A stretch of DNA of 64,000 nucleotides from Caenibius sp. Lineage in GTDB: Bacteria > Pseudomonadota > Alphaproteobacteria > Sphingomonadales > Sphingomonadaceae. The notes beneath the pieces are model-generated. The model was not told where the DNA came from. It saw nothing but the letters and a program-made list of their open reading frames with translations, and did not search any database. The stretch is from contig JAURML010000026.1 of NCBI GenBank assembly GCA_030830695.1, positions 20,372 through 84,371 of the forward strand, given 5' to 3'. Shown here one piece after another: positions 3,263 through 42,439 of this stretch; positions within the stretch are counted from its first letter, which is position 1, and the number at the start of each line of letters is the position of its first letter. The translations under genes and the position numbers were made by a program.

Positions 3263-3883
3263 ATGATAACTTCAGAACCACGATCTCAGGCAAGTCCACT
3301 GTCGGTTGTCCGCCGCAAATTTACCAAAAAGCATATATGCCATATCGCTAACGAGCTGATGGTCGAACATGGCTTTGCAGGCGTGACGATGGAGCAGATC
3401 GCAACTGCCGCAGGTATCACTCGTTCCACGCTCTACAATTATTTCCGCGACAAGAGTGCTATTCTCGAAGCTATCGCCGAAGATTACATCGACGCTCTGC
3501 TACCAGTCATAGAACGACTGCCAAGTCCGACTGCCAACGCTGAGCAGGTACGCATCTGGATTGGCGAATACGCGCAGTTTGTTTCGGATAACCCTGCCCC
3601 AGCCGAACTGGTAATGGCTGTCAGTCTGAAGCTCGACCCTCCACCGGTGATGCAAACGTTCGGGCACAAGGTAATGGCCGCATTGGCACGACGCTCACCT
3701 GCTTTTGCTTCAGCATTGTGCCCCGGGGAAGATTTTCGGCTTGCATGGGCGAGAGCCACGCTTGCGGTACTTGGATCAGCACTGACTTTCGCAGCCAAGC
3801 ACGGGCATTCGGCTGAGGCTCAAAGCAAATTGGATGTTGCAGCTATGCTGTTCACCCGTTTTCTGCACGACGAACGCCAATGA
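3263..3883 (+). CDS. TetR/AcrR family transcriptional regulator
   Basis: HTH 'GVTMEQIATAAGITRSTLYNYFRDKSAIL'; divergent from the cupin gene. Confidence 0.8.
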   Translation: MITSEPRSQASPLSVVRRKFTKKHICHIANELMVEHGFAGVTMEQIATAAGITRSTLYNYFRDKSAILEAIAEDYIDALLPVIERLPSPTANAEQVRIWIGEYAQFVSDNPAPAELVMAVSLKLDPPPVMQTFGHKVMAALARRSPAFASALCPGEDFRLAWARATLAVLGSALTFAAKHGHSAEAQSKLDVAAMLFTRFLHDERQ

Positions 3884-3942: not shown

Positions 3943-5106
3943 TCAAACCAGCAGCGGGTCGCCCATGCGGGCAAAGGCATCTTCTGCCGATTTGCCCAGG
4001 AACTTCTCACGCAGAACCGGGTCCAGGTTAGCGAGACTTTCGCCATAAAGCGTCACGGGATCGGCGCTGCCTTCTGGATGCGGGAAGTCCGACGACCAGA
4101 CGATCATGTCCGGCTCGGCCTGGAGGATCTGCAGTGCATTGACATCACCCAAGCCCGGAAGGGGTGAGACCAGAACCTGCTGGCGCAACATGTCGACTGC
4201 GTTTCGCTCGTAGGGCCAGTCACCGAACATGTTGGGATAGGTCAGCATCTGCATGCGGCCCATGTAAGTGGGCAACCAGAAGGCGAACAACTCGGCGATA
4301 AGCACCGTCAGCTTGGGGTGGCGGTCAAATACACCACCGAATGTAAGCGCCGACAGGAACAGCTCGGCAGCCTGGTAACGCTGGCTGTTGGCCATGCGCA
4401 GGAAAGCCGAGGCATAGCCGGGATCGCTGAAATCGCCCCCCATCCGGCCCCAATCGCCAAACAGTGCGGGAGCAAGGCCGACGTGAACGCTCACGATCAT
4501 GCCAAGCTCGACGAGTTTGGCCCAAAGCCGGTCGAAATGCGGATGCGCCAATGACATCCCGTTGACCGGCTCCGCCATGATCGAGAACGCCCGGCTGCCG
4601 CGAGCCCGCATCCGCTCCAGTTCAGCCAGGGTCCAGTCCAGGTCATTGAGATCGGCATAGGTAACCAGGCCAACACGATTCGCCGCGCTGCCGATTTCGT
4701 CCATAACCGCGTCGTTGGCTTCACGAATGAATTCATGGCGAAGCTTCTGGTCCTCGATCAGGCTGGCGGCGCCGCCGAAGCTGGGGCCATTGGTGATCGA
4801 ATAATCGATGCCGACCCGGTTCATCCATTCCAGCCTGTCCGGCACGGTGCAAGCCTGGCGGAACCCCTCGAAGTGCTCGGGAACGATCGTCCGCTCACCA
4901 TTTGCCCGGACTCTCTCCGGGAAAATTTTCTCCATTCGCGGGCGTTCATCTTTCGGCATTGCGGCCATAATGTCTGCAGCAATGAAGAAGGCAAACAGAT
5001 CGGGTTCGGAAGGGAAGTGCGGGGTAAACCGCTTTAGAGGGCCACGATCAATGTGAAACTCCCAATCCACCGTCCAATGGCTGTCAACGTCAATGACCAT
5101 GCTCAT
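3943..5106 (-). CDS. Amidohydrolase_2 (ACMSD/LigW/LigI-type metal-dependent hydrolase/decarboxylase) family protein
   Basis: N-terminal 'VIDVDSHW' metal motif and C-terminal 'WSSDFPHPEG'. Start placed at the ATG at 5106, preceded by AAGGAG; the ORF table extends to 5136. Confidence 0.75.
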   Translation of the reverse strand: MSMVIDVDSHWTVDWEFHIDRGPLKRFTPHFPSEPDLFAFFIAADIMAAMPKDERPRMEKIFPERVRANGERTIVPEHFEGFRQACTVPDRLEWMNRVGIDYSITNGPSFGGAASLIEDQKLRHEFIREANDAVMDEIGSAANRVGLVTYADLNDLDWTLAELERMRARGSRAFSIMAEPVNGMSLAHPHFDRLWAKLVELGMIVSVHVGLAPALFGDWGRMGGDFSDPGYASAFLRMANSQRYQAAELFLSALTFGGVFDRHPKLTVLIAELFAFWLPTYMGRMQMLTYPNMFGDWPYERNAVDMLRQQVLVSPLPGLGDVNALQILQAEPDMIVWSSDFPHPEGSADPVTLYGESLANLDPVLREKFLGKSAEDAFARMGDPLLV

Positions 5107-5317: not shown

Positions 5318-6334
5318 ATGCAGGTTCAAACAGTAGCGCGCCTTCGCGGCCCGCGCGAGATCGGTCCGGAGCAAATCGAACTGCCGACATGCGGGCCGGA
5401 TGACATTATTCTTGGTGTCGTGGCCTGCGGCATCTGCGGGACCGACCTCTCTATGTATAAGGAAGGGCCTTCGCTGCCCGGTGCTATCCTCGGTCACGAA
5501 TTTGTCGGCCGGATCGATCAGGTAGGCGGCAATATCGGGAGCTTGACAGTCGGCCAGCGGGTCGTGGTAAATCCCATGCACAATGGCCTGGGTCTCGGGC
5601 GCACCCCCGGAGCGTTCGCACGGCAGGTGCGGGTCACCAAACCCGTGCTGGATGAAAGCATATTTGCGCTGCCAGACGAGCTTGATGATGATCAGGGAGC
5701 GCTGGTCGAGCCATTCTCGGTCGCATTGCACGCGATCAACAACGGCCGCGTCGACGCATCCGATCGCGCTGTAGTTTTTGGGGCGGGCACGATCGGTCTA
5801 TGTGTTGTTGCGGGTCTCCGTGCCCGCGGGGTACAGGATATTCTGGTGATCGATCCTAGCGAGTTGCGCCGGAATATCGCAACAAAGTTGGGCGCATCCG
5901 CAGTGCTGGATCCAAGAGACGGGGATGCGATCGAGTTTATAGCAGATCATTTCGGCCAAGACACGCTGAGCTTCGGCGGTGACCTGCGGTTATCGAAGGC
6001 AACGGTCGCTTTCGACTGCGCAGGCGCGCGAATAGTTCCAAAGCAGGCAATTCACGCACTTGCCCCTCGAGGCCGTCTGGTACTCGTCGCAGATCCGCAT
6101 GACATTCCGCTGGACGATCTGCGACTGGTCATGCTGCGCGAATTGACGGTTGTAGGAGCACTTGCCTACGATCTTGAGTTTAGCGAGGCGATCACCCTGC
6201 TGGCGTCCCGTGCAGTTGATCTTAAGCCGTTAATCACTCATCGTTTCGCTTTGACGGATATCGCCAAAGCCTTTGAAGTGCAGTTAGATGCGAGTGCGTC
6301 AATCAAGGTGATTATAGATCCCGTCCCGGGTTGA
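5318..6334 (+). CDS. Zn-dependent alcohol dehydrogenase (MDR superfamily)
   Basis: 'GICGTDLSMY', 'GHEFVGRI' and Rossmann motif 'VFGAGTIGL'. RBS GAGGGG lies upstream of the ATG. Confidence 0.85.
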   Translation: MQVQTVARLRGPREIGPEQIELPTCGPDDIILGVVACGICGTDLSMYKEGPSLPGAILGHEFVGRIDQVGGNIGSLTVGQRVVVNPMHNGLGLGRTPGAFARQVRVTKPVLDESIFALPDELDDDQGALVEPFSVALHAINNGRVDASDRAVVFGAGTIGLCVVAGLRARGVQDILVIDPSELRRNIATKLGASAVLDPRDGDAIEFIADHFGQDTLSFGGDLRLSKATVAFDCAGARIVPKQAIHALAPRGRLVLVADPHDIPLDDLRLVMLRELTVVGALAYDLEFSEAITLLASRAVDLKPLITHRFALTDIAKAFEVQLDASASIKVIIDPVPG

Positions 6335-6469: not shown

Positions 6470-7714
6470 ATGGGCGAAGCCTATATCATAGACGCTTGCC
6501 GGACGCCGCGAGCAATCGGAAAGCCTGGCAAGGGCGCGTTCTCCGGCGTGCACCCGCAGCATTTGGGCGCTGCAGTGCTGAGCGCCATTGCCGAGCGCAA
6601 CGGACTCAACACCGCCGACGTCGACGACATCATCTGGGGCGTCAGCGCCCAGTTGGGTGGACAGGCAAGCGTGCTAGGTCGCATGGCCGCGCTCGATGCG
6701 GGTTATGATATGAAGGCCAGTGGCATCGCGATTAACCGCTTCTGCGGATCTGGCATTTCTGCAGTTGCGCTTGGTGCGGCGCAAATCATTGCCGGAATGG
6801 AAGATCTGATCGTCGCGGGCGGGACCGAGATGATGTCTGTGATTGCCGAACAGGGTGCTCAATCGAAGGGCGAAGTGCCGATGATGGACGTCGGCAATCT
6901 GCGCCTGCGCGAAAAATGGCCGCAATCACATCAGGGGCTGTGCGCCGATGCCATCGCTTCTATGGAAGGGATTACCCGCGAGGCGCTCGATGCGCTCGGC
7001 CTGGAAAGCCAGCGCCGGGCCGATATTGCGATTCGCGAAGGCCGCTTCAGCCACAGCCTGGTGCCGGTTTACCGGGAAGACGGCAGCTTGGCGCTTGACC
7101 GCGACGAATATCCGCGCCCTTCGACCACCGCCGAAGGGCTTGCAGAGCTGAAGCCGGCCTTCGCCATGCTCGCCGACATGCCTCTTAACGCCGAGGGCAT
7201 GACCTTCCGTTCGCTGATCCTCAAGCGCTTCCCCGATCTCAAGATCGACTTCTTCCACCATGCCGGCAGCTCGTCGGGCGTGGTCGATGGAGCAGCGGCG
7301 GTGTTGCTGGCCTCGCCCGAATATGCCCGTGCCCACGGCCTCAAACCCCGCGCGCGGATTGTTGCTTCTGCCAATATGGGCGATGATCCGACCCTGATGC
7401 TGAATGGCCCGGTTCCCGCAGCGCGCAAGGTGCTGGAGCGAGCCGGCCTGACCGTGGATGACATCGACCTGTTCGAGGTCAACGAAGCCTTCGCAGTGGT
7501 GGTCGAAAAGTTCATCCGGGACCTGAACATCGACCGCGATAAGATCAACGTCAACGGCGGCGCAATCGCGCTGGGCCATCCGATCGGCGCGACTGGCGCG
7601 GTCCTGATCGGCACCGTGCTCGACGAGTTGGAGCGGCGCGATCTCAAGCGCGGCCTGGTCACTATGTGCGCCGCCGGTGGCATGGCCCCAGCAATCATCA
7701 TCGAACGAGTCTAA
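6470..7714 (+). CDS. Acetyl-CoA C-acyltransferase (thiolase)
   Basis: Active-site motifs 'NRFCGSG', 'NVNGGAIALGHPIGATG' and 'CAAGGMAPA'. RBS GGAGAA upstream. Confidence 0.9.
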   Translation: MGEAYIIDACRTPRAIGKPGKGAFSGVHPQHLGAAVLSAIAERNGLNTADVDDIIWGVSAQLGGQASVLGRMAALDAGYDMKASGIAINRFCGSGISAVALGAAQIIAGMEDLIVAGGTEMMSVIAEQGAQSKGEVPMMDVGNLRLREKWPQSHQGLCADAIASMEGITREALDALGLESQRRADIAIREGRFSHSLVPVYREDGSLALDRDEYPRPSTTAEGLAELKPAFAMLADMPLNAEGMTFRSLILKRFPDLKIDFFHHAGSSSGVVDGAAAVLLASPEYARAHGLKPRARIVASANMGDDPTLMLNGPVPAARKVLERAGLTVDDIDLFEVNEAFAVVVEKFIRDLNIDRDKINVNGGAIALGHPIGATGAVLIGTVLDELERRDLKRGLVTMCAAGGMAPAIIIERV

Positions 7715-7813: not shown

Positions 7814-9139
7814 TCAGACCTCTTCGGTCTCCTCGTGCTTCGAGAACATGTACATGATGTCGCGCGAGAGCACGGGACGTGGCTTTTCGCCCGGGGCCAG
7901 CGGAGATGCGCCGCCGCTGGAGATGAGCGTAGTATCGACCCCGGCAGCAGCTGCCTGGGCCCGCAACGCGCCGACATTCAGCGTTTCGCGCGGGTGGTGA
8001 TCGAACATCGGGAAATCATAGAGCCGCATGGCATTGCGGTGCGTGATCTTGTCGATCTGCTCGTCGGTCAGATGCTTGATCGTATCCCACAGCAGTTCGG
8101 GCGCATTGGGCCAGGGCGCGTCGGAGTGGGGATAGTCTACTTCGAACATCACACTGTCTTCGCCTATCTTGTCGATGTTCTGCAGGCCATAGGCATCGAT
8201 CAGGAAGCAGCTGGAAAAGTTGCGGCGAAACACTTCGCTCGGCTTCATGCCGTTGAGGTACTGCTTCGAATGGGTCCAGGCGGAATGCTGTTCATGGGTG
8301 TAGTCGGCCCGTTCAAGCAGGTAGGGAATCCAGCCGATCCCGCTTTCCGACAGGATGATCTTGAGCTCGGGGTGGCGGTGCAGCGCTTCCATGTGCATCC
8401 AGTCCGCCGCGCCCGACGAAACCGCCATCGGCATGGTAGTGATCCACGCCTCGATCGGCGATTCCTCAGAGCAATGGGGCGATTGGTTGCCGGTGCCGAT
8501 GTGGAGGTTGATCGTGGTCCCGGTCTCGCAGGCAACCTTCCACAACGGCTCCCAGTAATCACTGTGCGCGCTGGGCAGACCCGACTTGGTGGGGTTTTCG
8601 CTCATGGTGATAGCAAAGCAGCCCTTGTCGGCCAAGCGGCGGACCTCCTTGACCGTTTCGGCCATGTCCCAGAACGGCAGGATGCCGAGCGGGATGAACC
8701 GGCCGGGATAGGCACCGCACCACTCATCGACGTGCCAGTCGTTGTAGGCCCGCAGGTGCGTGAGAGCGAGCTGCTTGTTCGGCGCCATCAGGAAACGGGC
8801 ACCATCCATCATCGCCATGCTGGGGAAATTCAGCGAAGCGGCGATGCCGTTGATGTTCATGTCCTCGATGCGGGCATGAACGTCGTAGCAGCCCTTGCGC
8901 AGCTGCGATAATGCAGTCGGCTCATAGCCGTATTCCTCCTTGACCCGGCCGGTGACCGCGTTGAGCGCCACCGAGGGGATCATCTGGCCCTGATATTCCC
9001 AATAGTTCTTGCCCGTCGGCGAAGTGCGCAGCTTGGGCGCCGATGCCAGGGCTTCGCCCGAAAGCTGGTTGTCGAACATGTTGCCGGGTTCGGTGATATG
9101 ATCATCGACGCTGACGATCACCATGTCGTTCATCTGCAT
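7814..9139 (-). CDS. Amidohydrolase_2 family protein (large, 441 aa)
   Basis: N-terminal 'VSVDDHITEP' and later 'EVDYPHSD', typical of this metal-dependent hydrolase/decarboxylase family. RBS AAAGGAGAG upstream. Confidence 0.75.
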   Translation of the reverse strand: MQMNDMVIVSVDDHITEPGNMFDNQLSGEALASAPKLRTSPTGKNYWEYQGQMIPSVALNAVTGRVKEEYGYEPTALSQLRKGCYDVHARIEDMNINGIAASLNFPSMAMMDGARFLMAPNKQLALTHLRAYNDWHVDEWCGAYPGRFIPLGILPFWDMAETVKEVRRLADKGCFAITMSENPTKSGLPSAHSDYWEPLWKVACETGTTINLHIGTGNQSPHCSEESPIEAWITTMPMAVSSGAADWMHMEALHRHPELKIILSESGIGWIPYLLERADYTHEQHSAWTHSKQYLNGMKPSEVFRRNFSSCFLIDAYGLQNIDKIGEDSVMFEVDYPHSDAPWPNAPELLWDTIKHLTDEQIDKITHRNAMRLYDFPMFDHHPRETLNVGALRAQAAAAGVDTTLISSGGASPLAPGEKPRPVLSRDIMYMFSKHEETEEV

Positions 9140-9199
9140 GATACTGCTCTCCTTTGAGATTGCAGCTGGGCCAGGCCGCTCGCCCGCCCAGCTATGAGG

Positions 9200-10177
9200 C
9201 TAGGCGTAGAAACGGGCGTATTGCTCGCGGTAGGCGATGATCGGGCCATCGCCTTCGACCAGCAAAGGCTTGGGCTTGTAGACCTTGGCGTTCCAGATCG
9301 GGATGTCCTGCTCGATCTGCTTGGCCAGATCGCGCATGCGGGCCTTGGTCACGCGCATCTTGCCTTCGCTGATGCCTGCAGGGTGATAGAGCTGCCAGCG
9401 CACTTGTGTGGTTTCGGAATCGATCGGCGTGCATTCCTGGGCAAGCAGCACGTTGGTAACGTCGGTGAACTCCACCAGAGTTTGCCCCGGGCCGACGGCA
9501 AGGTTGTCGATCTTGCCATGCATCGGGCCGCGAGGCGTGTTCATCTCGGCCTCGACGACATTGCGGCGCACCCAGCCATCGATCTTGAATTCGGCCGAGG
9601 GAGCGCCCGGCACGCCGTGGACCGAAGCAAAGTGAGCATGGTCCTGACTGTTCTCGGTGATTTCCTGGATATGGACCTTGATCGTCCATTCGCGGGTTTC
9701 CGAAAGAACCCAAGTGCCCCCTTCGGGAGCCTTGCCGATGCGCTCAACTTCCCACTTTGGCGCGTCGCCATCGGGGTGGAACCAAACATAGACCACGCCA
9801 TCCGCTTCGGTCACCGGCCACTTCTTGGTGCAGCCCTTCTTCAAACGCGGCGGGATCACCTTGGTATAGGGAATCGCGGTAACCCCCCCTTCGCCATTGA
9901 AGCTCCAATGGTGATAGGGGCAGCGCAAATCATTGCGGACCACTTCGCTGTGCACGCCCAGGTGGGCACCCAGGTGCGGGCAAATCGGATCGATCGCGCG
10001 AACCTCACCATCCTGTCCTCGCCAAGCAACGAATTCCGTTCCGAAATAGTGGAGCGTGCGGATTTCGCACTCCGCCAGTTCATCGCTCAAGGCGACCGCG
10101 AACCATCCGAATGGTATCGGAAGTTCAGCAAAACCCCGCTCCAGTGCAGCCCCCGGTTCCATCACTCGCTCCAGCAT
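9200..10177 (-). CDS. Rieske [2Fe-2S] non-heme-iron oxygenase, alpha-only (KshA-like class)
   Basis: Rieske motif 'CPHLGAHLG..(17)..CPYHHW'. Mononuclear Fe motif 'ENSQDHAHFASVH' (E-x3-D-x2-H-x4-H). 325 aa. Confidence 0.85.
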   Translation of the reverse strand: MLERVMEPGAALERGFAELPIPFGWFAVALSDELAECEIRTLHYFGTEFVAWRGQDGEVRAIDPICPHLGAHLGVHSEVVRNDLRCPYHHWSFNGEGGVTAIPYTKVIPPRLKKGCTKKWPVTEADGVVYVWFHPDGDAPKWEVERIGKAPEGGTWVLSETREWTIKVHIQEITENSQDHAHFASVHGVPGAPSAEFKIDGWVRRNVVEAEMNTPRGPMHGKIDNLAVGPGQTLVEFTDVTNVLLAQECTPIDSETTQVRWQLYHPAGISEGKMRVTKARMRDLAKQIEQDIPIWNAKVYKPKPLLVEGDGPIIAYREQYARFYA

Positions 10178-10329: not shown

Positions 10330-11736
10330 ATGCAGATTAATACGCGAATGCTGATCGATGGAGAACTGGTCGATGGGGCAGACACCCTTGATGTTACCAA
10401 CCCCGCCACTGCCGCACCGTTTATAACGGTCGCTCGCGCCGACGCCGAGCAGCTAGACAAAGCCGTGGCCGCCGCGAAGGCTGCTGCCCCGGCCTGGGCA
10501 GCACTCGGTTGGGAAGCGCGCGGTGCGCTTCTGTCCCGGCTGGCCGATGCGCTGGAAGCACAGCGCGATGAGATGGCCCGCCTTCTGACCACCGAACAAG
10601 GCAAGCCGATCCGTCAGGCCACCGGCGAGGTGATCGGCGCAATCTACCAGCTGCGCTATTACGCCGCCCAGCGCGGCGAGCCCAGGGTGATCAAGGAAAC
10701 CGAAAGCTTCCGCGTGATCGAACACCGCACTCCGCTAGGGGTAGTGGCGGCGATCACCCCGTGGAACTTCCCGCTACTCATGGTGGTGCAGAAGATCGCC
10801 CCTGCCCTAGTTTCCGGCAACACAGTGGTCGCCAAGCCAGCCGCGACTACACCGGTCTGCGCGCTCAAGCTTGCCGAACTGGCAGCGGGGATATTCCCCG
10901 CCGGAGTGCTGAACATCATCGTCGATGCCAACGATCTGGGCGGCGCGCTTTCAGCCCATCCCGATGTGGCCAAGGTAAGCTTCACCGGGTCGACCGCCAC
11001 CGGCCGCCGGGTTATGGCCGCAGGCGCCGATGCGCTGAAGCGAATCACGCTGGAACTTGGCGGCAATGATGCCGCGATCATCCTTGATGATGTCGATGCC
11101 AAGGATATCGCACCCAAGATTTTCAATGGCGCGATGGTCAATGCCGGGCAAGTGTGTCTTGCGATCAAGCGGGTTTATGCGCCAGCCTCTATGTATGATG
11201 AGCTGTGCAGCGAATTGGCCCGCCTCGCTGCCGAAGCTACGGTGGATGATGGCTTCAACCAGGGGGCGCAGGTCGGTCCTGTGCAGAATCGGATGCAGTA
11301 CGAAAAGCTGCTCGATCTGCTTGCTGACAGCGCCGCCAACGGCAAGGTGATTGCCGGCGGGCAGCCAGTTGATCGCGATGGATATTTCATTGCTCCAACG
11401 ATTGTGCGAGATATCGCTGACGATGCCCGTCTGGTTCGGGAAGAGCAGTTTGGACCGATCTTGCCCGTGCTTTCCTATGAAAGCCTGGACGAGGTGGTCT
11501 CCCGCGCCAATGACAGCGAATATGGCCTTGGAGGCACGATCTGGACTAGCGATACCGATCGCGGAATCGAAGTGGCCATGCGGATCGACAGTGGGACTGT
11601 ATGGGTGAACCAGCACCTGAACCTGCCGTTCGATGTGCCATTCGGCGGGTCGAAGCAATCCGGCATCGGTCGCGAAGGCGGGGACGAAGGCATTCAGGCA
11701 TACACCCAGCCGCACATCATCAATGTCGCGCTTTGA
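10330..11736 (+). CDS. NAD(P)+-dependent aldehyde dehydrogenase
   Basis: 'LELGGNDAAII' (catalytic Glu), 'GQVCLAIKRVY' (catalytic Cys), 'EEQFGP'. Start chosen at 'MQINTRMLIDGELV' behind GGAGAG; the ORF-table start at 10111 overlaps the divergent promoter. Confidence 0.9.
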   Translation: MQINTRMLIDGELVDGADTLDVTNPATAAPFITVARADAEQLDKAVAAAKAAAPAWAALGWEARGALLSRLADALEAQRDEMARLLTTEQGKPIRQATGEVIGAIYQLRYYAAQRGEPRVIKETESFRVIEHRTPLGVVAAITPWNFPLLMVVQKIAPALVSGNTVVAKPAATTPVCALKLAELAAGIFPAGVLNIIVDANDLGGALSAHPDVAKVSFTGSTATGRRVMAAGADALKRITLELGGNDAAIILDDVDAKDIAPKIFNGAMVNAGQVCLAIKRVYAPASMYDELCSELARLAAEATVDDGFNQGAQVGPVQNRMQYEKLLDLLADSAANGKVIAGGQPVDRDGYFIAPTIVRDIADDARLVREEQFGPILPVLSYESLDEVVSRANDSEYGLGGTIWTSDTDRGIEVAMRIDSGTVWVNQHLNLPFDVPFGGSKQSGIGREGGDEGIQAYTQPHIINVAL

Positions 11737-11832: not shown

Positions 11833-13356
11833 GTGGGGGCTCTTTCCGGGGTGACAGGGAGTGTTCTACTTGCTGCCGAAGAGCTTGCTCAACGGGTCCG
11901 CGTAAACCTGCAGGAGGCTGGAAGCAGTCTGGCGATTGCTTTCGATGGCCAGGAATTTGACTGGGAATGGCTGTCGGACAGCGCTGGAAAATTCGATCTA
12001 CTGATCGCTGCGGCTGCCTTGCTGCATCGCACACCCACTGCCTTGATTGCCCGCAACCGTCCCGGCCAGATCGCCATCCTGGCCAGTAACATTGCAGCGC
12101 GGCGCGCCACCCACATGATCCATGCGGCGCAGGCGCCGGCCGTTATCGCGCGCGAAATTGCCGAACTCGGGGTCTCGCTGATCGTTGCAGACGAACAGGA
12201 TTGGCATGACGACCTAATCGCAGTTGCACGGAGCGTGGGTGCGGCGGGCGTGATCATTGGCGCGGATCATGCATTGTCGTTACACCCGATGCTGGCTCGG
12301 GCCCACCCAAGACAAGCAGCAGACTTCGATCCTGAATTGGCTTTCGGCATCCTCAGCAGCGGGACCACCGGCCTACCAAAACGCACGCCCCTCGCCTGGT
12401 CAACCATCGCTGCCGCAGTAGGCGACGCAGCTCGCGCTCACGCCGGATCGGACCAGTCAGGAAGTGCGCAGATTATGTTGCATCCGCTGGGCAATATTGC
12501 CGGAGTCAGCTTTCTCGTCCCAGCTCTGGCGGCGCGCCAGCCTGTGGTTCTGCTGGAGAAATTCACCGTCGAAAGCTGGACCAACGTGGTTCAGCGCTAC
12601 CGACCGGTGCGCTCATCATTGCCCGCAGCGGCCTTGCGGATGGTGCTGGAAGCCGAGGTCGCACCGGCCCGCATCGGAAGCCTCAAGGTGGTCGCGGTGG
12701 GCGGTTCGCGGATCGAACCAGAGCTGAGGGGTGCCTTCGAGGAGCGCTATGGCATTCCTGTGCTGTTGGCCTACGGCGCCACCGAGTTTGGCGGAGTCGT
12801 CGCCAATTGGAGCCTCGATCTTTACGCCCGCTGCGGCGCGGCCAAACGTGAAAGCGTGGGCTTGCCTTCACCCGGGGTAATCTTGAAGATAGTCGATCCC
12901 GAGAGTCGTCATGAGTTGCCCGCAGGCAGCATCGGGATCATCGCCGCGCAGGTGGCGCGGCTAGGTGGACAATGGCTTTACACTAGCGATCTGGGCGCGA
13001 TCGATCAGGATGGCTTCCTGTACCTGCATGGTCGCGCCGATGGAGCGATCAACCGTGGCGGCTTCAAGATCGTACCGGAAACGGTCGAACATGTCTTGCG
13101 CGGCTTCCCGGGGGTTCGCGACGCCGTTGTGGTTGGGCTGCCTGACGAGCGACTGGGCGAAGTCCCCGTTGCCATGGTAGAGCAGGATCCTGCCGGCCCG
13201 CTTCTCGATCGGTCAGATCTGCTGAACCAGCTTAGGTCTCGGCTTACGGCCTATCAAATGCCGGTGAAGCTGGCGGTAGTGGCGCAGTTGCCAAGAACCG
13301 GCACCCTGAAAATCGCGCTGGGCGAAGCGCGCCGACAGCTTGCCGAACTGCCGTAG
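11833..13356 (+). CDS. Class I adenylate-forming enzyme / acyl-CoA synthetase (paralog of 38472..39971)
   Basis: 'LSSGTTGLPKR', 'YGATEFGG', 'DGFLYLHGRADGAINRGGFKI'. The start codon is uncertain (GTG at 11833 or 11851). Confidence 0.8.
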   Translation: MGALSGVTGSVLLAAEELAQRVRVNLQEAGSSLAIAFDGQEFDWEWLSDSAGKFDLLIAAAALLHRTPTALIARNRPGQIAILASNIAARRATHMIHAAQAPAVIAREIAELGVSLIVADEQDWHDDLIAVARSVGAAGVIIGADHALSLHPMLARAHPRQAADFDPELAFGILSSGTTGLPKRTPLAWSTIAAAVGDAARAHAGSDQSGSAQIMLHPLGNIAGVSFLVPALAARQPVVLLEKFTVESWTNVVQRYRPVRSSLPAAALRMVLEAEVAPARIGSLKVVAVGGSRIEPELRGAFEERYGIPVLLAYGATEFGGVVANWSLDLYARCGAAKRESVGLPSPGVILKIVDPESRHELPAGSIGIIAAQVARLGGQWLYTSDLGAIDQDGFLYLHGRADGAINRGGFKIVPETVEHVLRGFPGVRDAVVVGLPDERLGEVPVAMVEQDPAGPLLDRSDLLNQLRSRLTAYQMPVKLAVVAQLPRTGTLKIALGEARRQLAELP

Positions 13357-14222: not shown

Positions 14223-14411
14223 TCATTCGATCAGCTCGAAGCCTGACTTTTCCGCGCCGCATTGTGGACAGAACCAGTCGTCTGGCACCTCTTCCCAGCG
14301 CGTGCCGGGAGGAATGCCTTCATCGGGCATGCCCAGTTCCTCATCATAGACCTCACCGCAGAAGCGACAGGCCCACTTGCGGAATGTGCCGCCTGTTCCC
14401 GCCCGGCCCAT
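14223..14411 (-). CDS. Rubredoxin
   Basis: 'CRFCGEVYDEELGMPDEGIPPGTRWEEVPDDWFCPQCGAEK' contains both CxxCG knuckles and the conserved PDDW. Its ATG shares one base with the P450 stop codon (TGATG at 14409..14413). Confidence 0.85.
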   Translation of the reverse strand: MGRAGTGGTFRKWACRFCGEVYDEELGMPDEGIPPGTRWEEVPDDWFCPQCGAEKSGFELIE

Positions 14412-15688
14412 CAGGCCAGCTCAAAACGGATTGGCACGTGCTTGGGCCCGCACACAAAGTTGGAACGGGTGCGCTCAGGCTCGCCGGCGAGCGACACCGC
14501 CTTGATCCGGGGCAGCAGTTCCTCCCAAAACAGCTTCATTTCCATGCGCGCAAGATGCTGACCCAGACACACGTGGCTACCGAAACCAAAGGCGATCTGC
14601 CGGTTCATAGGACGATCGAGTCGAAACGCATGGGGTTCTTCATAAACCGCTTCATCACGTGCAGCGGAATGGAATGAAAGCATGATCCAATCGCCCTTCG
14701 ACACCTTTCGGCCCGCCAGTTCGGTATCGACGGCCGCAGACCGCATGAAGTGCTTGACCGGCACCGTCCAGCGGATCGATTCCTCGATGAAGGCATCGAT
14801 CAGCTCAGGGTTCCTTTGCAACTGCGGCAGCAGCGCCGGATCCTTGGCCAGTGCCCACATGCCACCCGACAGAGTATTGGCGGTGGTGTCGTGCCCCGCC
14901 GTGGCGGCGATCATGTAGTAGCCCATCAGCAGTTTGCGGCTGAGATATTCGCCCTGGTAGGTGGCATTGGCAATCAGGCTGCAGAGGCTGCTGTCGGGAT
15001 TGGCGCGGCGGTCCAGAGTCACCTTGTCGAAGTAGGCTTCGAACTCGGCGTTGATCCGCATCAGCACATCGCGCTGCTGGGCGGCGGAAACTTCGCTGCG
15101 GGTGAGGTTCAGTTCCGGATCCTCGCTAGAAAACAGTTGCTGGGTTACGCTCAGCATGAACGGCTCATCCTCGATGGGAATCCTCAGCAACTGCATGATG
15201 ACCCGCAGAGGATAGAGAAACGCTATTTCCGTCGCGAAGTCACATTCCGGCGCCTTCGCCAGCATCTGGTCAACGAACTGGCGCGACACGTCTCCCAGTC
15301 CTTCGCGCATGGTTTTCAATGCCTTGGGGGTAACATGGGGGAACAGGATCGCCCGCATGGCCTTGTGCACATCGCCATCCAGGGCGACCAGCGCGTGGAC
15401 CCAGTTCGGATCGCCACCAGTCATCGCCATCGTTTGCAGGACCTCTGCGGCCGGCCGCACGGTGTTGGCACGATCGCCCGCGTGAAAAACGTCGGGCTGG
15501 CGTTCAATCTCCACGATTTCAGCGTGCCTGGTGGCGACCCAGAACGGATCGTAGCCGTCGGGCGTGGCCACTTCGAACGGGGAATCTCGGCGGAGGGATG
15601 CGAAAGCTTCGTCGACCGCATCACCTTTTTGGAAGGCTTTGGCATCTACGATAGTGTTCGAAAGTTTCTTTGAAATCGTCATTTGCAA
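14411..15688 (-). CDS. Cytochrome P450 monooxygenase
   Basis: Heme-thiolate loop 'FGFGSHVCLGQHLA', I-helix 'AGHDTT', 'ESIRW' (ExxR). 425 aa. Confidence 0.9.
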   Translation of the reverse strand: MQMTISKKLSNTIVDAKAFQKGDAVDEAFASLRRDSPFEVATPDGYDPFWVATRHAEIVEIERQPDVFHAGDRANTVRPAAEVLQTMAMTGGDPNWVHALVALDGDVHKAMRAILFPHVTPKALKTMREGLGDVSRQFVDQMLAKAPECDFATEIAFLYPLRVIMQLLRIPIEDEPFMLSVTQQLFSSEDPELNLTRSEVSAAQQRDVLMRINAEFEAYFDKVTLDRRANPDSSLCSLIANATYQGEYLSRKLLMGYYMIAATAGHDTTANTLSGGMWALAKDPALLPQLQRNPELIDAFIEESIRWTVPVKHFMRSAAVDTELAGRKVSKGDWIMLSFHSAARDEAVYEEPHAFRLDRPMNRQIAFGFGSHVCLGQHLARMEMKLFWEELLPRIKAVSLAGEPERTRSNFVCGPKHVPIRFELA

Positions 15689-15789: not shown

Positions 15790-15929
15790 AAGCAGACTCA
15801 TCCGATGAGAACGCGTTAGACCAGTTCCCAGCAGTTCAATTTGATCTAGCTCAATGCAACGGTCGGGCAGGATGCAGATTGCAGGTAACAGACAGCACCT
15901 GTCACACTCTATTCGAGGACCAGGCTAAT

Positions 15930-17252
15930 ATGAATGCAACCCGGTCGCCCCAGCCCGCCGCCGCCGAAAACTTCATCCCTGCCGAATGGTACGTTGGTGA
16001 CGGCGTGACCCGGGCCGAGAACAGCAGGCTATGGCCACGCACCTGGCACTGCGCCGGGCGCATCGAAGAGCTAAAGGAAACCGGCGATTATTTCACCTTC
16101 GAGCTGCTTGACGATTCGCTGGTCATTGTACGCATCGGAGACAATGAATTCACCGCACTGCATAATGTGTGCCCTCATCGCGGTCGCCGGTTGAAGGACG
16201 CACCTCGCGGCAATGTCCGCGATGGCCTTTACTGCGGCTATCACGGCTGGGTCATGGACCTTGATGGTTCCGTCAAGTCGGCCCCCAACGCCGAAGACTG
16301 GTGTCCAGGCGAATTGGGCAAGCTGCGAATGTTGAAGGCGCAGCTCGATACATGGGCCGGGTGGATATGGGTCAACCTCGATCCTGCGGCTCCGCCCCTC
16401 AGCGAATACCTTGGTCCGGCGGTCGATATCCTTGCGCCGCTAGGGCTGGAAAAAATGCGCCGCGCCTGGCACGCGACGCTGCGGGCACCGGTCAACTGGA
16501 AGGTGCAGTACCAGGCCTTCAACGAGACCTACCACGCAGGCGCGACTCACGATGGCTTCATCAGCTACAAGAACCTCAGCTCGCAGGCCGTCCTCCACGG
16601 CGATCACGCAGTGTTCTATTCCAAGCGTACCGGCCCTTGTGCACGGCGCGATACTCTGGGCCAATGGCACGAGATTACGGACCTGCGCGAAGAACTGGCT
16701 GCCAATTTCATCCATCAGTACCGCAATCTGCATGCACTGACCCTGGAACCGACATTCCGCGCCGTAAACCGGCTTCTGGAGGAAGTGCCTACCGGAAGTC
16801 CACCCGAACAGGTGCTGGCCGAGCTGTGGCGGCTGCAGCGCGAGGAAACGGAAAAGACCGGAGCTGAATGGCCCGAAGCCCTGACGCCGGAAAACTTCGC
16901 CCGCATGGGCACCGACTGGCAGCTATTCCCTTCGACTCTGGTACTCCCGTCGGTCGACGGGGCGCTGTGGTATCGCATCCTGCCGTCAGCCGACGGCCGC
17001 TCGTGCCTCCATGATATCTGGGCGCTGGGCCGCTTTGCCCCTGGCGAAGAACCTGAAATCGAAGATCTCTATTTCGACAGCTTCGAGGACTTCAAAGGGG
17101 TCAACCCATTCCTTGAGGAAGACTTCGCGAACCTCATCGCAGTGGACAAGGGCATGCGCAGCCGCGGATGGGCAGGCGCCGTCCTCAATCCCCGTCAGGA
17201 GCCTCAGCAGCTTTCGATGATGCAGGCGATCCAACGATACATCAGCGAATAG
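15930..17252 (+). CDS. Rieske non-heme-iron oxygenase alpha subunit (paralog of 40184..41515)
   Basis: 'CPHRGRRL..CGYHGW' and Fe motif 'FNETYHAGATH'. The C-terminal block 'LPSVDGALWYRI..EEDFANL..VDKGMRSRG' is shared with 40184..41515. Start set at 'MNATRS'. Confidence 0.85.
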   Translation: MNATRSPQPAAAENFIPAEWYVGDGVTRAENSRLWPRTWHCAGRIEELKETGDYFTFELLDDSLVIVRIGDNEFTALHNVCPHRGRRLKDAPRGNVRDGLYCGYHGWVMDLDGSVKSAPNAEDWCPGELGKLRMLKAQLDTWAGWIWVNLDPAAPPLSEYLGPAVDILAPLGLEKMRRAWHATLRAPVNWKVQYQAFNETYHAGATHDGFISYKNLSSQAVLHGDHAVFYSKRTGPCARRDTLGQWHEITDLREELAANFIHQYRNLHALTLEPTFRAVNRLLEEVPTGSPPEQVLAELWRLQREETEKTGAEWPEALTPENFARMGTDWQLFPSTLVLPSVDGALWYRILPSADGRSCLHDIWALGRFAPGEEPEIEDLYFDSFEDFKGVNPFLEEDFANLIAVDKGMRSRGWAGAVLNPRQEPQQLSMMQAIQRYISE

Positions 17253-19692: not shown

Positions 19693-20481
19693 CTAACTTG
19701 TCTTGCCAAACAGGGGGCGCCGCTTCTCAAAAAAGGCTGCGACGCCCTCGGCGTGATCGTCCGATCCCATGGCAATCGCCTGAAACGCGGCTTCCATCTT
19801 GCAATAGCCATCAAGATCAACATCAGTCGCAGCACGCAGGAGGGTCTTGGTCAGGCCGGTCGCCGGTTGCGGAGCTTCAGCAAGCAGCCGTGCCGTATTC
19901 ATCGCTTCGTCGAACAGGGCATCATCGGCCACAACCCGGGAGACCAGACCCAATCGGGCAGCCTCTTCCGCAGCGACCTTGCGATTGGTCAGCAGTATCT
20001 CGCGCGCGCGCGGAGCCCCGACAGCCCGCTGCAGGGTTATGCCAAGCAATCCGTCTGGACACATTCCAACCCCCGCGAAGCCCGGTTGGAAGAACGCGCG
20101 CTGCGAGGCAATGATAATATCACCCAGCATCGAGAGGCCGAAGCCGGCACCGACGGCCGGACCATTCACGGCCATGACAACCGGCTTCGCCCCGGTCAGC
20201 AGCTTGCGCGCCCAGTTCTGGGTAGACTCGATTCTGCGCTGGTTGACGTCGGGCGGTACCTTCTGGCCGAAGCTGGACACATCGCCGCCGGCGCAAAAAC
20301 AGTCCCCCACGCCTGCCACCAGGAGACAACGCTGGGCCGGATCATTGAAAAACGCATCGAGTGCGCCCGGCAGTGCAGTCTTGATCTCCTGGACGAGGGC
20401 ATTGCGCTGCGCCGGGCGGTTTAGTTGCAGCACAGTCACCCCGCCCTCATGGCTTACCAGCAGGGGCGCATCGCTGCTCAT
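19693..20481 (-). CDS. Enoyl-CoA hydratase/isomerase (crotonase fold)
   Basis: 'VLQLNRPAQRNAL', 'CFCAGGDV', 'GPAVGAGFGLSMLGDIIIAS'. ATGA overlap with the upstream ACAD small-subunit gene. Confidence 0.85.
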   Translation of the reverse strand: MSSDAPLLVSHEGGVTVLQLNRPAQRNALVQEIKTALPGALDAFFNDPAQRCLLVAGVGDCFCAGGDVSSFGQKVPPDVNQRRIESTQNWARKLLTGAKPVVMAVNGPAVGAGFGLSMLGDIIIASQRAFFQPGFAGVGMCPDGLLGITLQRAVGAPRAREILLTNRKVAAEEAARLGLVSRVVADDALFDEAMNTARLLAEAPQPATGLTKTLLRAATDVDLDGYCKMEAAFQAIAMGSDDHAEGVAAFFEKRRPLFGKTS

Positions 20482-21485
20482 GCCGTTGGGCCGTCTGCGG
20501 CAATGATCCGCGCCTGTTCGATCCGTTCGCTGCTGGTTAGCGCTGAAAGCAGCCAGGCGCGCTTAAGGAACAAGTGGGCATCGGCCTCGTAGGTGAAGCC
20601 GATGCCGCCATGGATCTGGATGTTGAAGCGGCCATTCTCGCGCGCGGCATCACCGGCCAGCAGGCGGGCAGCAGCCACTTCGAACAGGTTGCCGTCTTCT
20701 CGCTCCAGCGCGTCGAGTGTGGCAAATAAGGTCTGCGCCACGGCGGCTTCGGCCCGCCGAGCCATTTCCGCGCAATAGTGCTTGATCGACTGGAAGCTGC
20801 CGATTGGCTGGCCGAACTGTTCGCGAAACTTGCCGTATTCGACTGCCATGGCGCAGGTCGCTTCGGCATTGCCAGCGAGCGCGGCAGACAGCATCAGGCT
20901 GGCCGCGCGCAGCATCCACGGGCCCTCGCGGCGGGCGGCTGGCGAACCCAGATCAAGCACGGCGCGCGCCAGGCCGACCGTATCATCGAGGCATTCCGCC
21001 TGACGCGCATCGGTGGGCGCGCGATAGAGGCGTGCTTCCTGTGCATTCCACAGCAGCACATAGTCCACGCCCTCGGCGTCAATCAACTGGACGTCGGCGG
21101 TGTCGTTTGAAAAATCGACGGGCTTCAACGGATTGGCGAAAGCCACGCGGGTTTCGCCCGCCATGATCGCGGGCAGGATATCATCGCCCGCCACATGGGT
21201 CGCCAGCATGGTCGAGAGCACCGTGGGTGAAACCAGATGCTTGCCGAATTCGCGAGCGACAGTGACCTCTTCGGCCAGCGTGCAGCCGAAGCCGCCGCGC
21301 GCCTCGCTGACGGAAAGACCAAACAGGCCCAGTTCGGCAAGCGTGCCCCAGATCGCCCGTTCGGCTGCCCCGCCGAATGCGGCCTCTTCGTGCAGCCGGG
21401 CAATCGGTAGTTCGTCAGCCAGCAGCGCGGCAACAGAATCACGGAAAGCTTCCTGGTCTTCGGTCGGCAGCAGGTCAACGATCAT
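20478..21485 (-). CDS. Acyl-CoA dehydrogenase, small (beta-type) subunit of a split ACAD pair
   Basis: ACAD-like 'IQIHGGIGFTYEADAHLFLKRA', but it lacks the C-terminal GGTxEI motif. Start 'MIVDLLPTEDQEAF' overlaps the stop of 21482..22660 (ATGA). Confidence 0.8.
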   Translation of the reverse strand: MIVDLLPTEDQEAFRDSVAALLADELPIARLHEEAAFGGAAERAIWGTLAELGLFGLSVSEARGGFGCTLAEEVTVAREFGKHLVSPTVLSTMLATHVAGDDILPAIMAGETRVAFANPLKPVDFSNDTADVQLIDAEGVDYVLLWNAQEARLYRAPTDARQAECLDDTVGLARAVLDLGSPAARREGPWMLRAASLMLSAALAGNAEATCAMAVEYGKFREQFGQPIGSFQSIKHYCAEMARRAEAAVAQTLFATLDALEREDGNLFEVAAARLLAGDAARENGRFNIQIHGGIGFTYEADAHLFLKRAWLLSALTSSERIEQARIIAADGPTA

Positions 21486-24910: not shown

Positions 24911-24917
24911 ATGGACC

Positions 24918-28172: not shown

Positions 28173-28175
28173 GGT

Positions 28176-40183: not shown

Positions 40184-41515
40184 ATGAGTGATGCGCACAT
40201 CGATTCGGCCCGACCTGACTTTCTGCCGGCCGCAGACTATCGCGATCCGGCGCGTCACCGGGCAGAACTTGACCGTCTCTGGCCGCGCGTATGGCAGATG
40301 GCCTGCCGTGAATCCGATCTCGCCCATGTCGGCGCATTCGTGCGCTACGATATTGTCGATGACAGCATTCTGGTGGTGAAGACCGGCGATGGTGCAGACG
40401 ATGTCGTGGCCTACTACAACGTCTGCCAGCACCGCGGTCGTCGCCTGAAGGAAGACTGGAGCGGAACGATCTCCACGACACTGGCCTGCCGATTCCATGG
40501 CTGGCAGTGGCATATCAACGGCGACCTCCACAGCGTCTATGTTCCCGAGGACTGGGACGGCTGCCCCGAGATGGACTCCGCCTCGCTGGGTCTGCCGAAG
40601 GTAAAAGTGGGGCGCTGGGGCGGCTGGGTCTGGATCAACCAGGACCCGGATTGCGAACCTCTCGCGGACTACCTGGGCAGCGTGCCGCAGTTTCTTGATC
40701 CGTTCGAGCCGGAAAACATGCGTCCGCTGTGGTGGAAGACTATCATCGCGCCGGTCAACTGGAAGATCGTGATAGAGGCCTTCAACGAAGGCTACCACAG
40801 CTGGGCAACCCATGCGTCCGGGGTTAACTACCGCAATTCTCGCTCGCCGGGCATCGCCCACGGGCTCCATTCGATGTTCTATTCCGAATCTGTCGGCCCC
40901 GGAGAATTCAAGGACCCCCTGGGCAAGTGGCGCCTGCCCAAGTCGACTCAGGAATATATCTGGGCGAACAACAACCACCTTTTCAACACGCTGGGCGCGT
41001 TAGCACTGGAGCCGGGCATGGCGGCCAATAACCGCCTGCTCGAACTGCCCGCCGACACACCTTCGGGCGAAGTCGTGGCGACCATGTTCCGCTTCTATGC
41101 CGAAGAGTTCGAGAAGCGCGGAGTCACCTTCCCTCCGAACCTGACAATCGAGAACTGGGCCAAGGCGGGGACCGACTGGCACATCTTCCCGCACAGCATC
41201 TGCCTGCCCTCGCTGGACGGGGCATTGTGGTATCGCCTGCGCCCGAACGGCCATGATCCCGACAGTTGCATCTTCGATATCTGGTCGCTAGGCCGGTTCA
41301 AGCCGGGTGCAGAACCCAAGGTGGTGAACGATATCTATGAAGGCTTCGATGCCTTCCGCGGCCAATGCGCCTTCCTCGAGGAGGACTTCGCCAACATGGA
41401 AGCCGTGCACCAGGGCGTGAAAAGCCGGGGCTTCCGGGGCGCGCGGACCAACCCACGTCAGGAAGTCCCTGTCATCAATTTCCACCGCGCACTCGCCGAA
41501 TTCACCAGATCTTGA
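40184..41515 (+). CDS. Rieske non-heme-iron oxygenase alpha subunit (paralog of 15930..17252)
   Basis: 'CQHRGRRL..CRFHGW' and 'FNEGYHSWATH'. Start 'MSDAHIDS' sits behind GGAGAG. Confidence 0.85.
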   Translation: MSDAHIDSARPDFLPAADYRDPARHRAELDRLWPRVWQMACRESDLAHVGAFVRYDIVDDSILVVKTGDGADDVVAYYNVCQHRGRRLKEDWSGTISTTLACRFHGWQWHINGDLHSVYVPEDWDGCPEMDSASLGLPKVKVGRWGGWVWINQDPDCEPLADYLGSVPQFLDPFEPENMRPLWWKTIIAPVNWKIVIEAFNEGYHSWATHASGVNYRNSRSPGIAHGLHSMFYSESVGPGEFKDPLGKWRLPKSTQEYIWANNNHLFNTLGALALEPGMAANNRLLELPADTPSGEVVATMFRFYAEEFEKRGVTFPPNLTIENWAKAGTDWHIFPHSICLPSLDGALWYRLRPNGHDPDSCIFDIWSLGRFKPGAEPKVVNDIYEGFDAFRGQCAFLEEDFANMEAVHQGVKSRGFRGARTNPRQEVPVINFHRALAEFTRS

Positions 41516-41563
41516 AACACCAGCGGCAACGCCCGCAGCGTTTTCCGAGTTAGAGGAACAGCC

Positions 41564-42439
41564 ATGCCCTTCCCGTCAGACATCCGGGCCATCGACCTGA
41601 TGGTCAACATCCCGACCGACGAACACAACGAAGGCGGCTATTCAGGCTTTCGCCCACTTCTGCGTGACAAGGAAAGCCTCGATGCGTTCCATATGCCGGC
41701 GCAGTACATGTTTCGCAACATTCCCTCGCTGGGTTCGGACAGCCGCGAATATGTCGGTGCGATCATCGCCGAGATGGACAAGTGGGGCGTCGAAACTGCC
41801 CTGATCCCGGTCAACGACGCGATTCGCCATCCCGAGACCATGACCCGCTATCCCGGCCGCTTCATCACCCAGACTTCGATCAACCCATCGGGCGGCATGG
41901 AGGAAATCCGTCGTATCCGCGAGTTGCACCGCGAGCACGGCCTGCGCGCGCTGACCTATTTCCCCGCAGCCTCATTCCCGCAGGTGCCGATCGACGGCAA
42001 GGAAATGTACCCCCTCTATGCGCTGTGCTGCGATCTGGACTTGCCGATCCTGATCAACGTCGGCGTGCCCGGCCCGCGCGTACCGATGGCGACCCAGAAG
42101 GTCGAACTGATCGACGAGGTTTGCTGGTTCTTCCCCGAACTCAAGCTGATCATGCGCCACGGCGCCGAACCCTGGGTCGATCTGGCGGTCAAGCTGATGC
42201 TGAAGTACCCGAACCTCTACTACGCGCCCAGCGCTTTCGCACCCAAGCATTATCCCAAAGCGATCATCGATTTCGCCAATACGCGCGGATCAGACAAGAT
42301 CATGTACGCCGGCTATTTCCCGGCCGGCCTTTCGTTGGAACGGATATTCACCGAATTGCGCGCGGTGCCCTTCAAGGACGAAGTCTGGCCCAAGTTCCTG
42401 CGTGGCAATGCAGCCCGCGTGCTGGGCCTGCCAGCCTGA
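41564..42439 (+). CDS. Amidohydrolase_2 family protein (291 aa)
   Basis: TIM-barrel hydrolase-like, with 'LKLIMRHGAEPW' and 'DKIMYAGYFP'. Lies 48 nt downstream of the Rieske gene. The family call is moderately confident. Confidence 0.7.
   Translation: MPFPSDIRAIDLMVNIPTDEHNEGGYSGFRPLLRDKESLDAFHMPAQYMFRNIPSLGSDSREYVGAIIAEMDKWGVETALIPVNDAIRHPETMTRYPGRFITQTSINPSGGMEEIRRIRELHREHGLRALTYFPAASFPQVPIDGKEMYPLYALCCDLDLPILINVGVPGPRVPMATQKVELIDEVCWFFPELKLIMRHGAEPWVDLAVKLMLKYPNLYYAPSAFAPKHYPKAIIDFANTRGSDKIMYAGYFPAGLSLERIFTELRAVPFKDEVWPKFLRGNAARVLGLPA

Follow-up and report, generated by a model that had tools for sequence, protein, structure and literature searches.

What is the function of a gene of the amidohydrolase family that directly follows a gene for a Rieske oxygenase? 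The question is raised by two adjacent minus-strand genes at 7814-10177 of a 64,000-nucleotide stretch of Caenibius sp. DNA (from contig JAURML010000026.1; the whole stretch is called the window here). A sequence-only reading had described an alpha-only Rieske oxygenase (10177 to 9200), followed after 60 nucleotides by a 441-residue PF04909 protein (9139 to 7814), and its coordinates for both open reading frames (ORFs) are exact. It had further suggested that the PF04909 protein may be a hydrolytic, decarboxylating or retro-aldol-type enzyme acting on the Rieske product, and this does not hold: the protein, which we call ARO1, carries the ligand set of the amidohydrolase-related dinuclear oxygenases (AROs), and its best relatives of solved structure are the hydroxylases DitZ and PtmU3. 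We consider it fairly probable that the Rieske protein and ARO1 are two co-transcribed, O2-dependent hydroxylases of a coenzyme A (CoA)-dependent unit, in which ARO1 would beta-hydroxylate an acyl-CoA. The pair consists of the following features.

9200-10177, minus strand: KshA/Neverland-type Rieske non-haem-iron monooxygenase, alpha-only, 325 residues (Pfam Rieske and KshA_C)
9140-9199, minus strand: intergenic spacer of 60 nucleotides, carrying the ribosome-binding site of the downstream ARO1 gene
7814-9139, minus strand: ARO1, predicted DitZ-like amidohydrolase-related dinuclear oxygenase of the di-iron type, 441 residues (PF04909, DitZ match and motifs)

AROs, to which both DitZ and PtmU3 belong, use O2 and a two-metal site in a TIM barrel to hydroxylate C-H bonds. 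The authors who defined the family did so by an N-terminal D-x-H and a C-terminal D-x-P-H-x-D/E motif, stated that these motifs occur in no characterised PF04909 hydrolase or decarboxylase, and put the number of such proteins that carry a mistaken amidohydrolase annotation at about 17,000. ARO1, which matches PF04909 with 107 bits (E 1.5e-30), has both motifs; the first is D12-D13-H14, aligned with the D-D-H of DitZ, and the second, D335-Y-P-H338-S-D340, is also aligned with DitZ and is preceded by about 200 or more residues. The mid-barrel histidine H213 and the bridging glutamate E265 align with H217 and E269 of DitZ, and the ligand motifs are invariant across 11 family members. The published ligands of AibH2 include H211 and E265, and the ligand lists of AibH2 and LynB7 correspond to the ARO1 residues. 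Like DitZ, ARO1 has Asp between D and H, which places it in the high-potential, di-iron class. Altogether ARO1 is firmly predicted to be a DitZ/PtmU3-type ARO of that class that had been misread as an amidohydrolase; ARO1-type genes are labelled amidohydrolase in annotation elsewhere, and no NCBIfam model names ARO1 or either of the other two PF04909 proteins of the window (below).

Comparison with solved structures points the same way. ARO1 matches DitZ (PDB 8UYR) with E 4e-96 over residues 1-402 and PtmU3 (6OMP) with 1e-35, and a solved homologue at the former value settles its predicted fold and ligands. Identity to the Rhodococcus DitZ (RrDitZ) is 39% over 402 residues (E 2e-106); ARO1 is thus a predicted member of the ARO family and falls in one superfamily clade with DitZ, but this identity does not demonstrate orthology with DitZ. 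We also note that ARO1 residues ~385-441 form a conserved tail beyond the barrel (VGALRA...GVDT...GGA.PLA.GE.PRP...), which is common to proteobacterial relatives and partly present in DitZ as well.

Could ARO1 nevertheless cleave the hydroxylation product of the Rieske enzyme, as a hydrolase, decarboxylase, lactonase or retro-aldolase? Enzymes of this kind do occur in PF04909, and ARO1 has weak matches to LigW, ACMSD and the resorcylate decarboxylases (E 1e-5 to 1e-12); moreover, a short PF04909 protein is conserved beside a KshA-like Rieske protein in bile-salt clusters, where a role of this kind has been proposed. However, the decarboxylases and hydrolases of the fold match ARO1 at 1e-12 or weaker, and the E-value of the top match, a hydroxylase, is more than 80 orders of magnitude lower. 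The two ARO1 motifs are those reported in no characterised hydrolase or decarboxylase of the fold, and ARO1 is, as judged by alignment, unrelated to the short bile-salt-cluster amidohydrolase (23% identity over a fragment, E 0.02). Such a cleaving activity of ARO1 is scarcely credible. Identity with a classical PF04909 hydrolase, decarboxylase or hydratase (ACMSD, LigW, LigI, LigJ) was ruled out by the ARO motifs and the far weaker matches.

The Rieske protein appears to be an oxygenase in its own right. It matches PF00355 with 67.6 bits and KshA_C (PF19298) with 99.3 bits, has the cluster motif C-P-H-L-G...C-P-Y-H (C-x-H...C-x-x-H type), and two of its segments, D-H-A-H-F-A-S-V-H and E-Q-D-I-P-I-W, can be aligned with those that carry the iron ligands in KshA (4QDF, E 9e-31). 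The iron ligands of KshA-type enzymes are H-x4-H plus an Asp. Because the cluster motif and the aligned iron-binding segments of KshA are both there, we take the protein to be a complete oxygenase, not a ferredoxin, and more precisely an intact KshA-type monooxygenase, a prediction that we regard as secure. It belongs to a large sphingomonad radiation of paralogous proteins of 320-340 residues; more than 1500 homologues were found, and identity to the nearest one from outside the lineage is 76%. No beta-subunit gene lies beside it. A dedicated KshB-type reductase is absent from the ORFs of the 64-kb window; such a reductase is reported to be missing in Sphingobium sp. Chol11 as well, and the KshA-like paralogues of that strain differ in reaction.

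Electron supply has to be considered at this point. A motif scan of the window ORFs found no ferredoxin, flavin-reductase or FNR-type motif, and yet the window has three Rieske oxygenases, one cytochrome P450 and two AROs, whose electrons must come from outside the window. One could imagine that the Rieske protein is itself the electron donor to ARO1, like the AibG and SfbR ferredoxins, and that the two form a single multicomponent monooxygenase. The missing ferredoxin and reductase would fit, small Rieske proteins, which have been proposed in print as ARO reductants, have PF04909 genes among their most frequent neighbours, and a paralogous KshA-like Rieske gene also adjoins an ARO gene at another site (L176/L177, below). 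That Rieske protein has its own Fer2 ferredoxin, however, and the window Rieske protein is 325 residues long with a full catalytic domain and iron ligands, as opposed to ferredoxins of fewer than 250 residues. Published work reports that Rieske-ferredoxin neighbours are largely missing from high-potential AROs such as DitZ, and the position at which Rieske-ferredoxin-docking AROs carry an aromatic residue is Ala341 in ARO1 (Ser in DitZ) and Gly346 in the second ARO, ARO2. An adjacent KshA-like Rieske gene is also missing in 80 of 80 ARO homologue loci. A donor role for the Rieske protein is very improbable on this evidence.

Within the window the two genes look like one transcription unit. The spacer has the ribosome-binding site AAGGAGA 8 nucleotides ahead of the ATG, and neither a promoter-like nor a terminator-like site was found in its 60 nucleotides; the Rieske and ARO1 genes are therefore likely, as read from the DNA, to be co-transcribed. 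They lie in a compact unit at 3.2-15.7 kb with genes for a TetR regulator, ARO2, a Zn-dependent alcohol dehydrogenase, a thiolase, an aldehyde dehydrogenase, a CoA ligase, a thioesterase and a P450, and the local unit around ARO1 is kept on contigs of the same lineage. The genes around the pair are as follows.

3263-3883, plus strand: TetR-family regulator flanking the unit (TetR_N)
3943-5106, minus strand: ARO2, putative PtmU3-like dinuclear oxygenase, 387 residues from MSMVIDVDSH (PF04909 and ligand motifs)
5318-6334, plus strand: Zn-dependent alcohol dehydrogenase, upstream of the thiolase (ADH_N and ADH_zinc_N)
6470-7714, plus strand: degradative 3-ketoacyl-CoA thiolase (Thiolase_N and Thiolase_C; NCBIfam PRK06025, 743 bits, above cut-off)
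10330-11736, plus strand: aldehyde dehydrogenase, divergent from the Rieske gene (Aldedh, 504 bits)
11833-13356, plus strand: acyl-CoA ligase, downstream of the aldehyde dehydrogenase (AMP-binding and AMP-binding_C)
14411-15688: P450
15879-17252, plus strand: third Rieske alpha gene of the window

The start of the aldehyde dehydrogenase is likely M74 of a longer ORF, as the Aldedh match begins at residue 91 of the ORF that opens at 10111. Its divergent arrangement with the Rieske gene is also seen in L172 (L numbers denote the loci compared), and the order alcohol dehydrogenase, thiolase recurs on metagenome contig L081. The thiolase gene is oriented convergently to ARO1; thiolases 69-71% identical to it lie near ARO1 homologues in L015, L016 (there directly downstream) and L045. 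Farther along, a long minus-strand run (26988-37770) encodes the unusual combination of a family III CoA-transferase, a GDSL lipase, a short-chain dehydrogenase/reductase (SDR), an FAD-linked oxidase, a thiamine diphosphate-dependent enzyme, a MaoC-like dehydratase, an enoyl-CoA hydratase, a CoA ligase and an aldo-keto reductase.

A lack of conserved adjacency in related genomes would, by the terms of the sequence-only reading, count against it, and by and large the adjacency of the two genes is not conserved. Taking one genome per species, we found more than 595 loci homologous to ARO1 and examined the best 80 of these (53-73% identity) with 10-kb flanks, scoring KshA-like Rieske genes by tblastn at E 1e-10; none of the 80 has one. 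Their neighbours vary widely and include P450, Baeyer-Villiger monooxygenase, TauD-like, Ring_hydroxyl_A Rieske and housekeeping genes. A P450 gene lies within 3 kb in 22 of the 80, a Ring_hydroxyl_A Rieske gene within 6 kb in 16 (directly adjacent in 8), and a thiolase-superfamily gene, either Ltp2-like or a true thiolase, within 6 kb in 21. About 20 of the 80 share an operon of SDR, P450, DUF35 (ChsH2-type OB fold), Ltp2-like thiolase, DUF2889 and ARO (L010-L012, L020, L026, L027, L038, L041-L043, L045, L047 and L053 among others), found in Halieaceae, other gammaproteobacteria and sphingomonads, which suggests that the ARO is coupled with an Ltp2-type C-C cleaving enzyme. Near ARO1 homologues, CoA ligase and CoA transferase genes recur as well, and on Massilia and Rhodococcus plasmids an ARO gene lies beside a thiolase-family or OB-fold gene and CoA enzymes.

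The proteobacterial relatives of ARO1 form a large clade of their own (53-75% identity) with several paralogues per genome. The closest ones outside the lineage (68-75%; L174, L175, L003, L004, L006, L039) are single genes amid housekeeping genes (for an RsmB-like methyltransferase, a ferrochelatase and a pseudouridine synthase) or follow a gene for a lactonase-like beta-propeller. Around the 53%-identical Stutzerimonas homologue (L077) a dit-type cluster is absent, and genes for a Zn-dependent alcohol dehydrogenase, a ferredoxin reductase and a TetR regulator are found there instead. In plasmid records with both the Rieske and the ARO families, the two genes are far apart and not adjacent.

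Viewed from the Rieske side, ten homologues were looked up; six have a PF04909 gene less than 5 kb away, and in only two is it directly adjacent. The first of these is the near-identical relative L172, in which the ARO is 99% but the Rieske protein only 93% identical to that of 7814-10177, so that the two probably co-transcribed genes have diverged unequally. The second is the paralogous pair L176/L177 (Rieske 66%, ARO 53% identical), which is probably on the same contig as the window; its cassette runs DUF35, Ltp2-like, CoA ligase, acyl-CoA dehydrogenase (ACAD), ACAD, Fer2, KshA-like Rieske and a convergent ARO gene. L182 and L184 repeat the core CoA ligase-ACAD-ACAD-Fer2-Rieske, and L183 has it minus the ligase; a divergent short PF04909 gene stands upstream of the core in L183 and L184. 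The closest Rieske homologues (69-76%) have immediate neighbours other than an ARO. The pairing of Rieske and ARO is recurrent in the lineage of the window and is not fixed in the family.

Incidental adjacency must accordingly be taken seriously: independent oxygenases with different substrates or pathways could have been shuffled together in an oxygenase-dense catabolic island. The absence of KshA-like Rieske genes from the 80 ARO loci with their varied neighbours makes this a serious alternative, and the other surroundings of the closest Rieske homologues and the unequal divergence in L172 fit it too. On the other hand, the two genes share a strand, their short spacer holds a ribosome-binding site but no terminator, PF04909 genes accompany six of the ten Rieske homologues looked up, a second, paralogous juxtaposition exists, probably in the same genome, and adjacency within the window exceeds chance (below). 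Since the operon structure is tight and the pairing recurs in paralogous form, we argue that the Rieske enzyme and ARO1 share at least a pathway, and rate their being chance neighbours as less likely, though by no means remote.

The sequence-only reading had also pointed to the same gene order at 40184..42439, on the plus strand.

40184-41515, plus strand: module 2 Rieske oxygenase, Ring_hydroxyl_A type, alpha-only (Pfam Rieske and Ring_hydroxyl_A; C-Q-H...C-R-F-H)
41564-42439, plus strand: module 2 short PF04909 protein, 291 residues, not an ARO (without the C-terminal motif)

The order is real, but its members are of different classes. The two Rieske proteins fall in different catalytic-domain families, that of module 2 having weak GbcA-like similarity in NCBIfam. 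The short PF04909 protein has N165, H199, Y251, A254 and L256 at the aligned ARO ligand positions, its family also lacks the usual mononuclear ligands, and its only solved relative is the uncharacterised Bordetella protein BB4693 (3IRS). The recurrence of the module thus holds at the Pfam level only, and the two PF04909 proteins are predicted to be functionally different classes. A naive permutation test (56 window genes, 3 Rieske, 3 PF04909) gave P = 0.03 for at least two adjacent Rieske/PF04909 pairs, falling to 0.002 when the genes of both pairs had to share a strand with the Rieske gene first; within the window the adjacency exceeds chance, and related genomes show that the specific pairings are not fixed.

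The remaining PF04909 gene of the window, 3943-5106, is a second predicted dinuclear oxygenase, ARO2. Its ligand residues would be D8-S-H10, H208, E272 and D340-F-P-H343-P-E345, and its best solved match is PtmU3 (5e-17). The pattern D-S-H, D-F-P-H-P-E is of the PtmU3 type, and the gene is divergent from the alcohol dehydrogenase/thiolase operon and beside the TetR gene. In total the window has three PF04909 genes and three Rieske alpha genes, of which the sequence-only reading had overlooked one of each (3943-5106 and 15879-17252).

The short PF04909 protein leads to a different and already published pair. Its homologue is the amidohydrolase encoded in the bile-salt side-chain cluster of sphingomonads, at 57-58% identity (58% to Novosphingobium aromaticivorans SARO_RS18870). 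In Sphingobium sp. Chol11 the side-chain cluster, which is kept among bile-salt-degrading Sphingomonadaceae, contains the CoA ligase SclA, the heteromeric ACAD Scd4AB, the Rieske protein Nov2c228 and the "amidase" Nov2c229, and lacks canonical hydratase, aldolase and thiolase genes; its authors proposed an unknown side-chain mechanism involving hydroxylation, and a similar cluster is induced in Caenibius tardaugens. We found no later resolution of the Chol11-type mechanism in the literature. On replicons of N. aromaticivorans, Novosphingobium ES2-1 and Sphingobium TomTYG72 (L086, L088, L089) the layout is CoA ligase, 288-residue PF04909 protein, (SDR), KshA-like Rieske protein and PF01425 amidase. 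All 15 sphingomonad replicons that match the window Rieske protein carry a short PF04909 gene adjoining the Rieske gene or one gene apart. In a metagenome sample of 80 loci of the short family (L092-L171), a KshA-type Rieske gene directly adjoins the short PF04909 gene in 21 of 49 evaluable loci and in 21 of 54 the gene directly upstream encodes an SclA-like ligase; none of the 80 has a Ring_hydroxyl_A Rieske gene beside it.

The conserved pair is thus a KshA-like Rieske protein and a short PF04909 protein, and the window re-assorts it, combining the KshA-like Rieske gene with an ARO gene and the short PF04909 gene with a Ring_hydroxyl_A Rieske gene. For the short class (41564-42439) the hydrolase or lyase idea stands as a published hypothesis, which does not extend to ARO1. 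The possibility that the window is an orthologous Chol11 bile-salt cluster was rejected, its specific matches being the short PF04909 protein (57%) and the Rieske protein (37%) and the matches of the other cluster genes being generic (~30%). We also note two adjacent ACAD gene pairs at 20478-22660 and 23711-26030, flanked by enoyl-CoA hydratase genes, which resemble heteromeric steroid-type ACADs and are 31-34% identical to the Scd4AB-like pair of TomTYG72.

What might the two hydroxylases do? PtmU3 has been reported to hydroxylate C-5 of a diterpenoid-CoA in platensimycin and platencin biosynthesis; the literature terms it a beta-hydroxylase able to use CoA-linked substrates. By analogy, in the pathway we favour the substrate would be a bulky alicyclic, terpenoid- or steroid-like compound, which the Rieske enzyme or the P450 would oxidise, the alcohol and aldehyde dehydrogenases would convert to a carboxylate and the CoA ligase to a CoA thioester. 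ARO1 would then, in the manner of PtmU3 with its diterpenoid-CoA, hydroxylate an unactivated carbon that is beta to the thioester, and the beta-hydroxyacyl-CoA would be reached without an acyl-CoA dehydrogenase and a hydratase; a dehydrogenase and then the adjacent thiolase (or an Ltp2-type enzyme) could cleave the C-C bond. The Rieske enzyme would probably hydroxylate another position of the same scaffold and not be an obligate partner of the ARO. Beta-hydroxylation of a hindered acyl-CoA fits because ARO1 relatives repeatedly adjoin CoA ligases or transferases and thiolase-type C-C cleaving enzymes. The suggestion that the pair substitutes for the missing hydratase/aldolase step survives to this extent: a bypass is plausible, but ARO1 would itself hydroxylate and not cleave a Rieske product.

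Several points weigh against this pathway. The thiolase gene is convergent with ARO1 and not co-transcribed with it, and the window encodes no ferredoxin or reductase, by the motif scan, that could supply its oxygenases with electrons. An identity of 39% to DitZ does not establish the same reaction, the substrates and roles given here for the Rieske protein and ARO1 are predictions, and the closest ARO1 homologues stand outside catabolic operons, so the role of the family may exceed CoA-ester catabolism. On a bolder joint reading, KshA-like Rieske enzymes would be recurrent functional partners of PF04909 proteins, whether AROs or short ligand-less forms, in the CoA-dependent catabolism of sphingomonads. 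Here the Rieske enzyme and the ARO would work in obligate succession or as an electron-sharing complex, and the oxygen functions that they place on an acyl-CoA would enable a thiolase to cut a bond out of reach of normal beta-oxidation. If true, such a partnership would hint at the mechanism of bile-salt side-chain removal in Sphingomonadaceae; we think it quite improbable.

In any case the annotation is corrected: genes labelled "amidohydrolase" in sphingomonad terpenoid- or steroid-type clusters can be di-iron hydroxylases, of which the window holds two putative examples, and this reassignment changes which pathway steps look "missing". One Pfam label covers two different things here, the ARO-type proteins being predicted oxygenases and the short ligand-less ones conserved neighbours of KshA-like Rieske proteins. 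For side-chain cleavage in Sphingomonadaceae this leaves fewer candidates and points to a possible route in which CoA esters are beta-hydroxylated directly.

Comparison with known systems indicates that the locus combines a DitZ/PtmU3-type ARO and a KshA-type Rieske protein of known families and is no new kind of system. With KshA and the Neverland-type proteins the window Rieske protein shares the Rieske domain, KshA_C, the alpha-only form and the conserved iron-ligand segments, but KshA, the oxygenase of 3-ketosteroid 9-alpha-hydroxylase, has ~390 residues against 325 and is a distant match (E 9e-31). The Chol11 core likewise has a KshA-like Rieske gene beside a PF04909 gene in a CoA-dependent cluster without a canonical side-chain hydratase or aldolase; its Rieske partner is the short ligand-less form, whereas the window Rieske protein, 37-40% identical, is partnered by a 441-residue ARO, and at 7814-10177 there is no ~290-residue PF04909 gene and SclA-type ligase gene adjoining the KshA-like Rieske gene. 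AibH1H2 with AibG and AibF, and SfbO with SfbR, also place a gene for a PF04909 dinuclear oxygenase beside one for a Rieske-cluster protein, but theirs are small Rieske ferredoxins with low-potential, Mn-capable AROs, and the window has a full Rieske oxygenase and a predicted high-potential ARO.

In abietane diterpenoid catabolism, a dit-type context consists of a three-component ring-hydroxylating dioxygenase and an extradiol dioxygenase. DitZ itself, a di-iron diterpenoid hydroxylase, has in the Rhodococcus form (8UYR) the same D-D-H, D-Y-P-H-S-D, His ligand and Glu ligand as ARO1, and in both the C-terminal motif is followed by a small residue; it differs in that the two are 39% identical and that the window has no recognisable dit-type ring-cleavage context, a beta subunit, a ferredoxin and an extradiol dioxygenase all being absent from its annotated ORFs. 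PtmU3 is likewise a di-iron TIM-barrel hydroxylase, and ARO2 shares with it the Ser between D and H and the terminal Glu. It is a biosynthetic enzyme of Streptomyces, whereas the genes around ARO1 and ARO2 form a catabolic context with thiolase, dehydrogenases and regulators.

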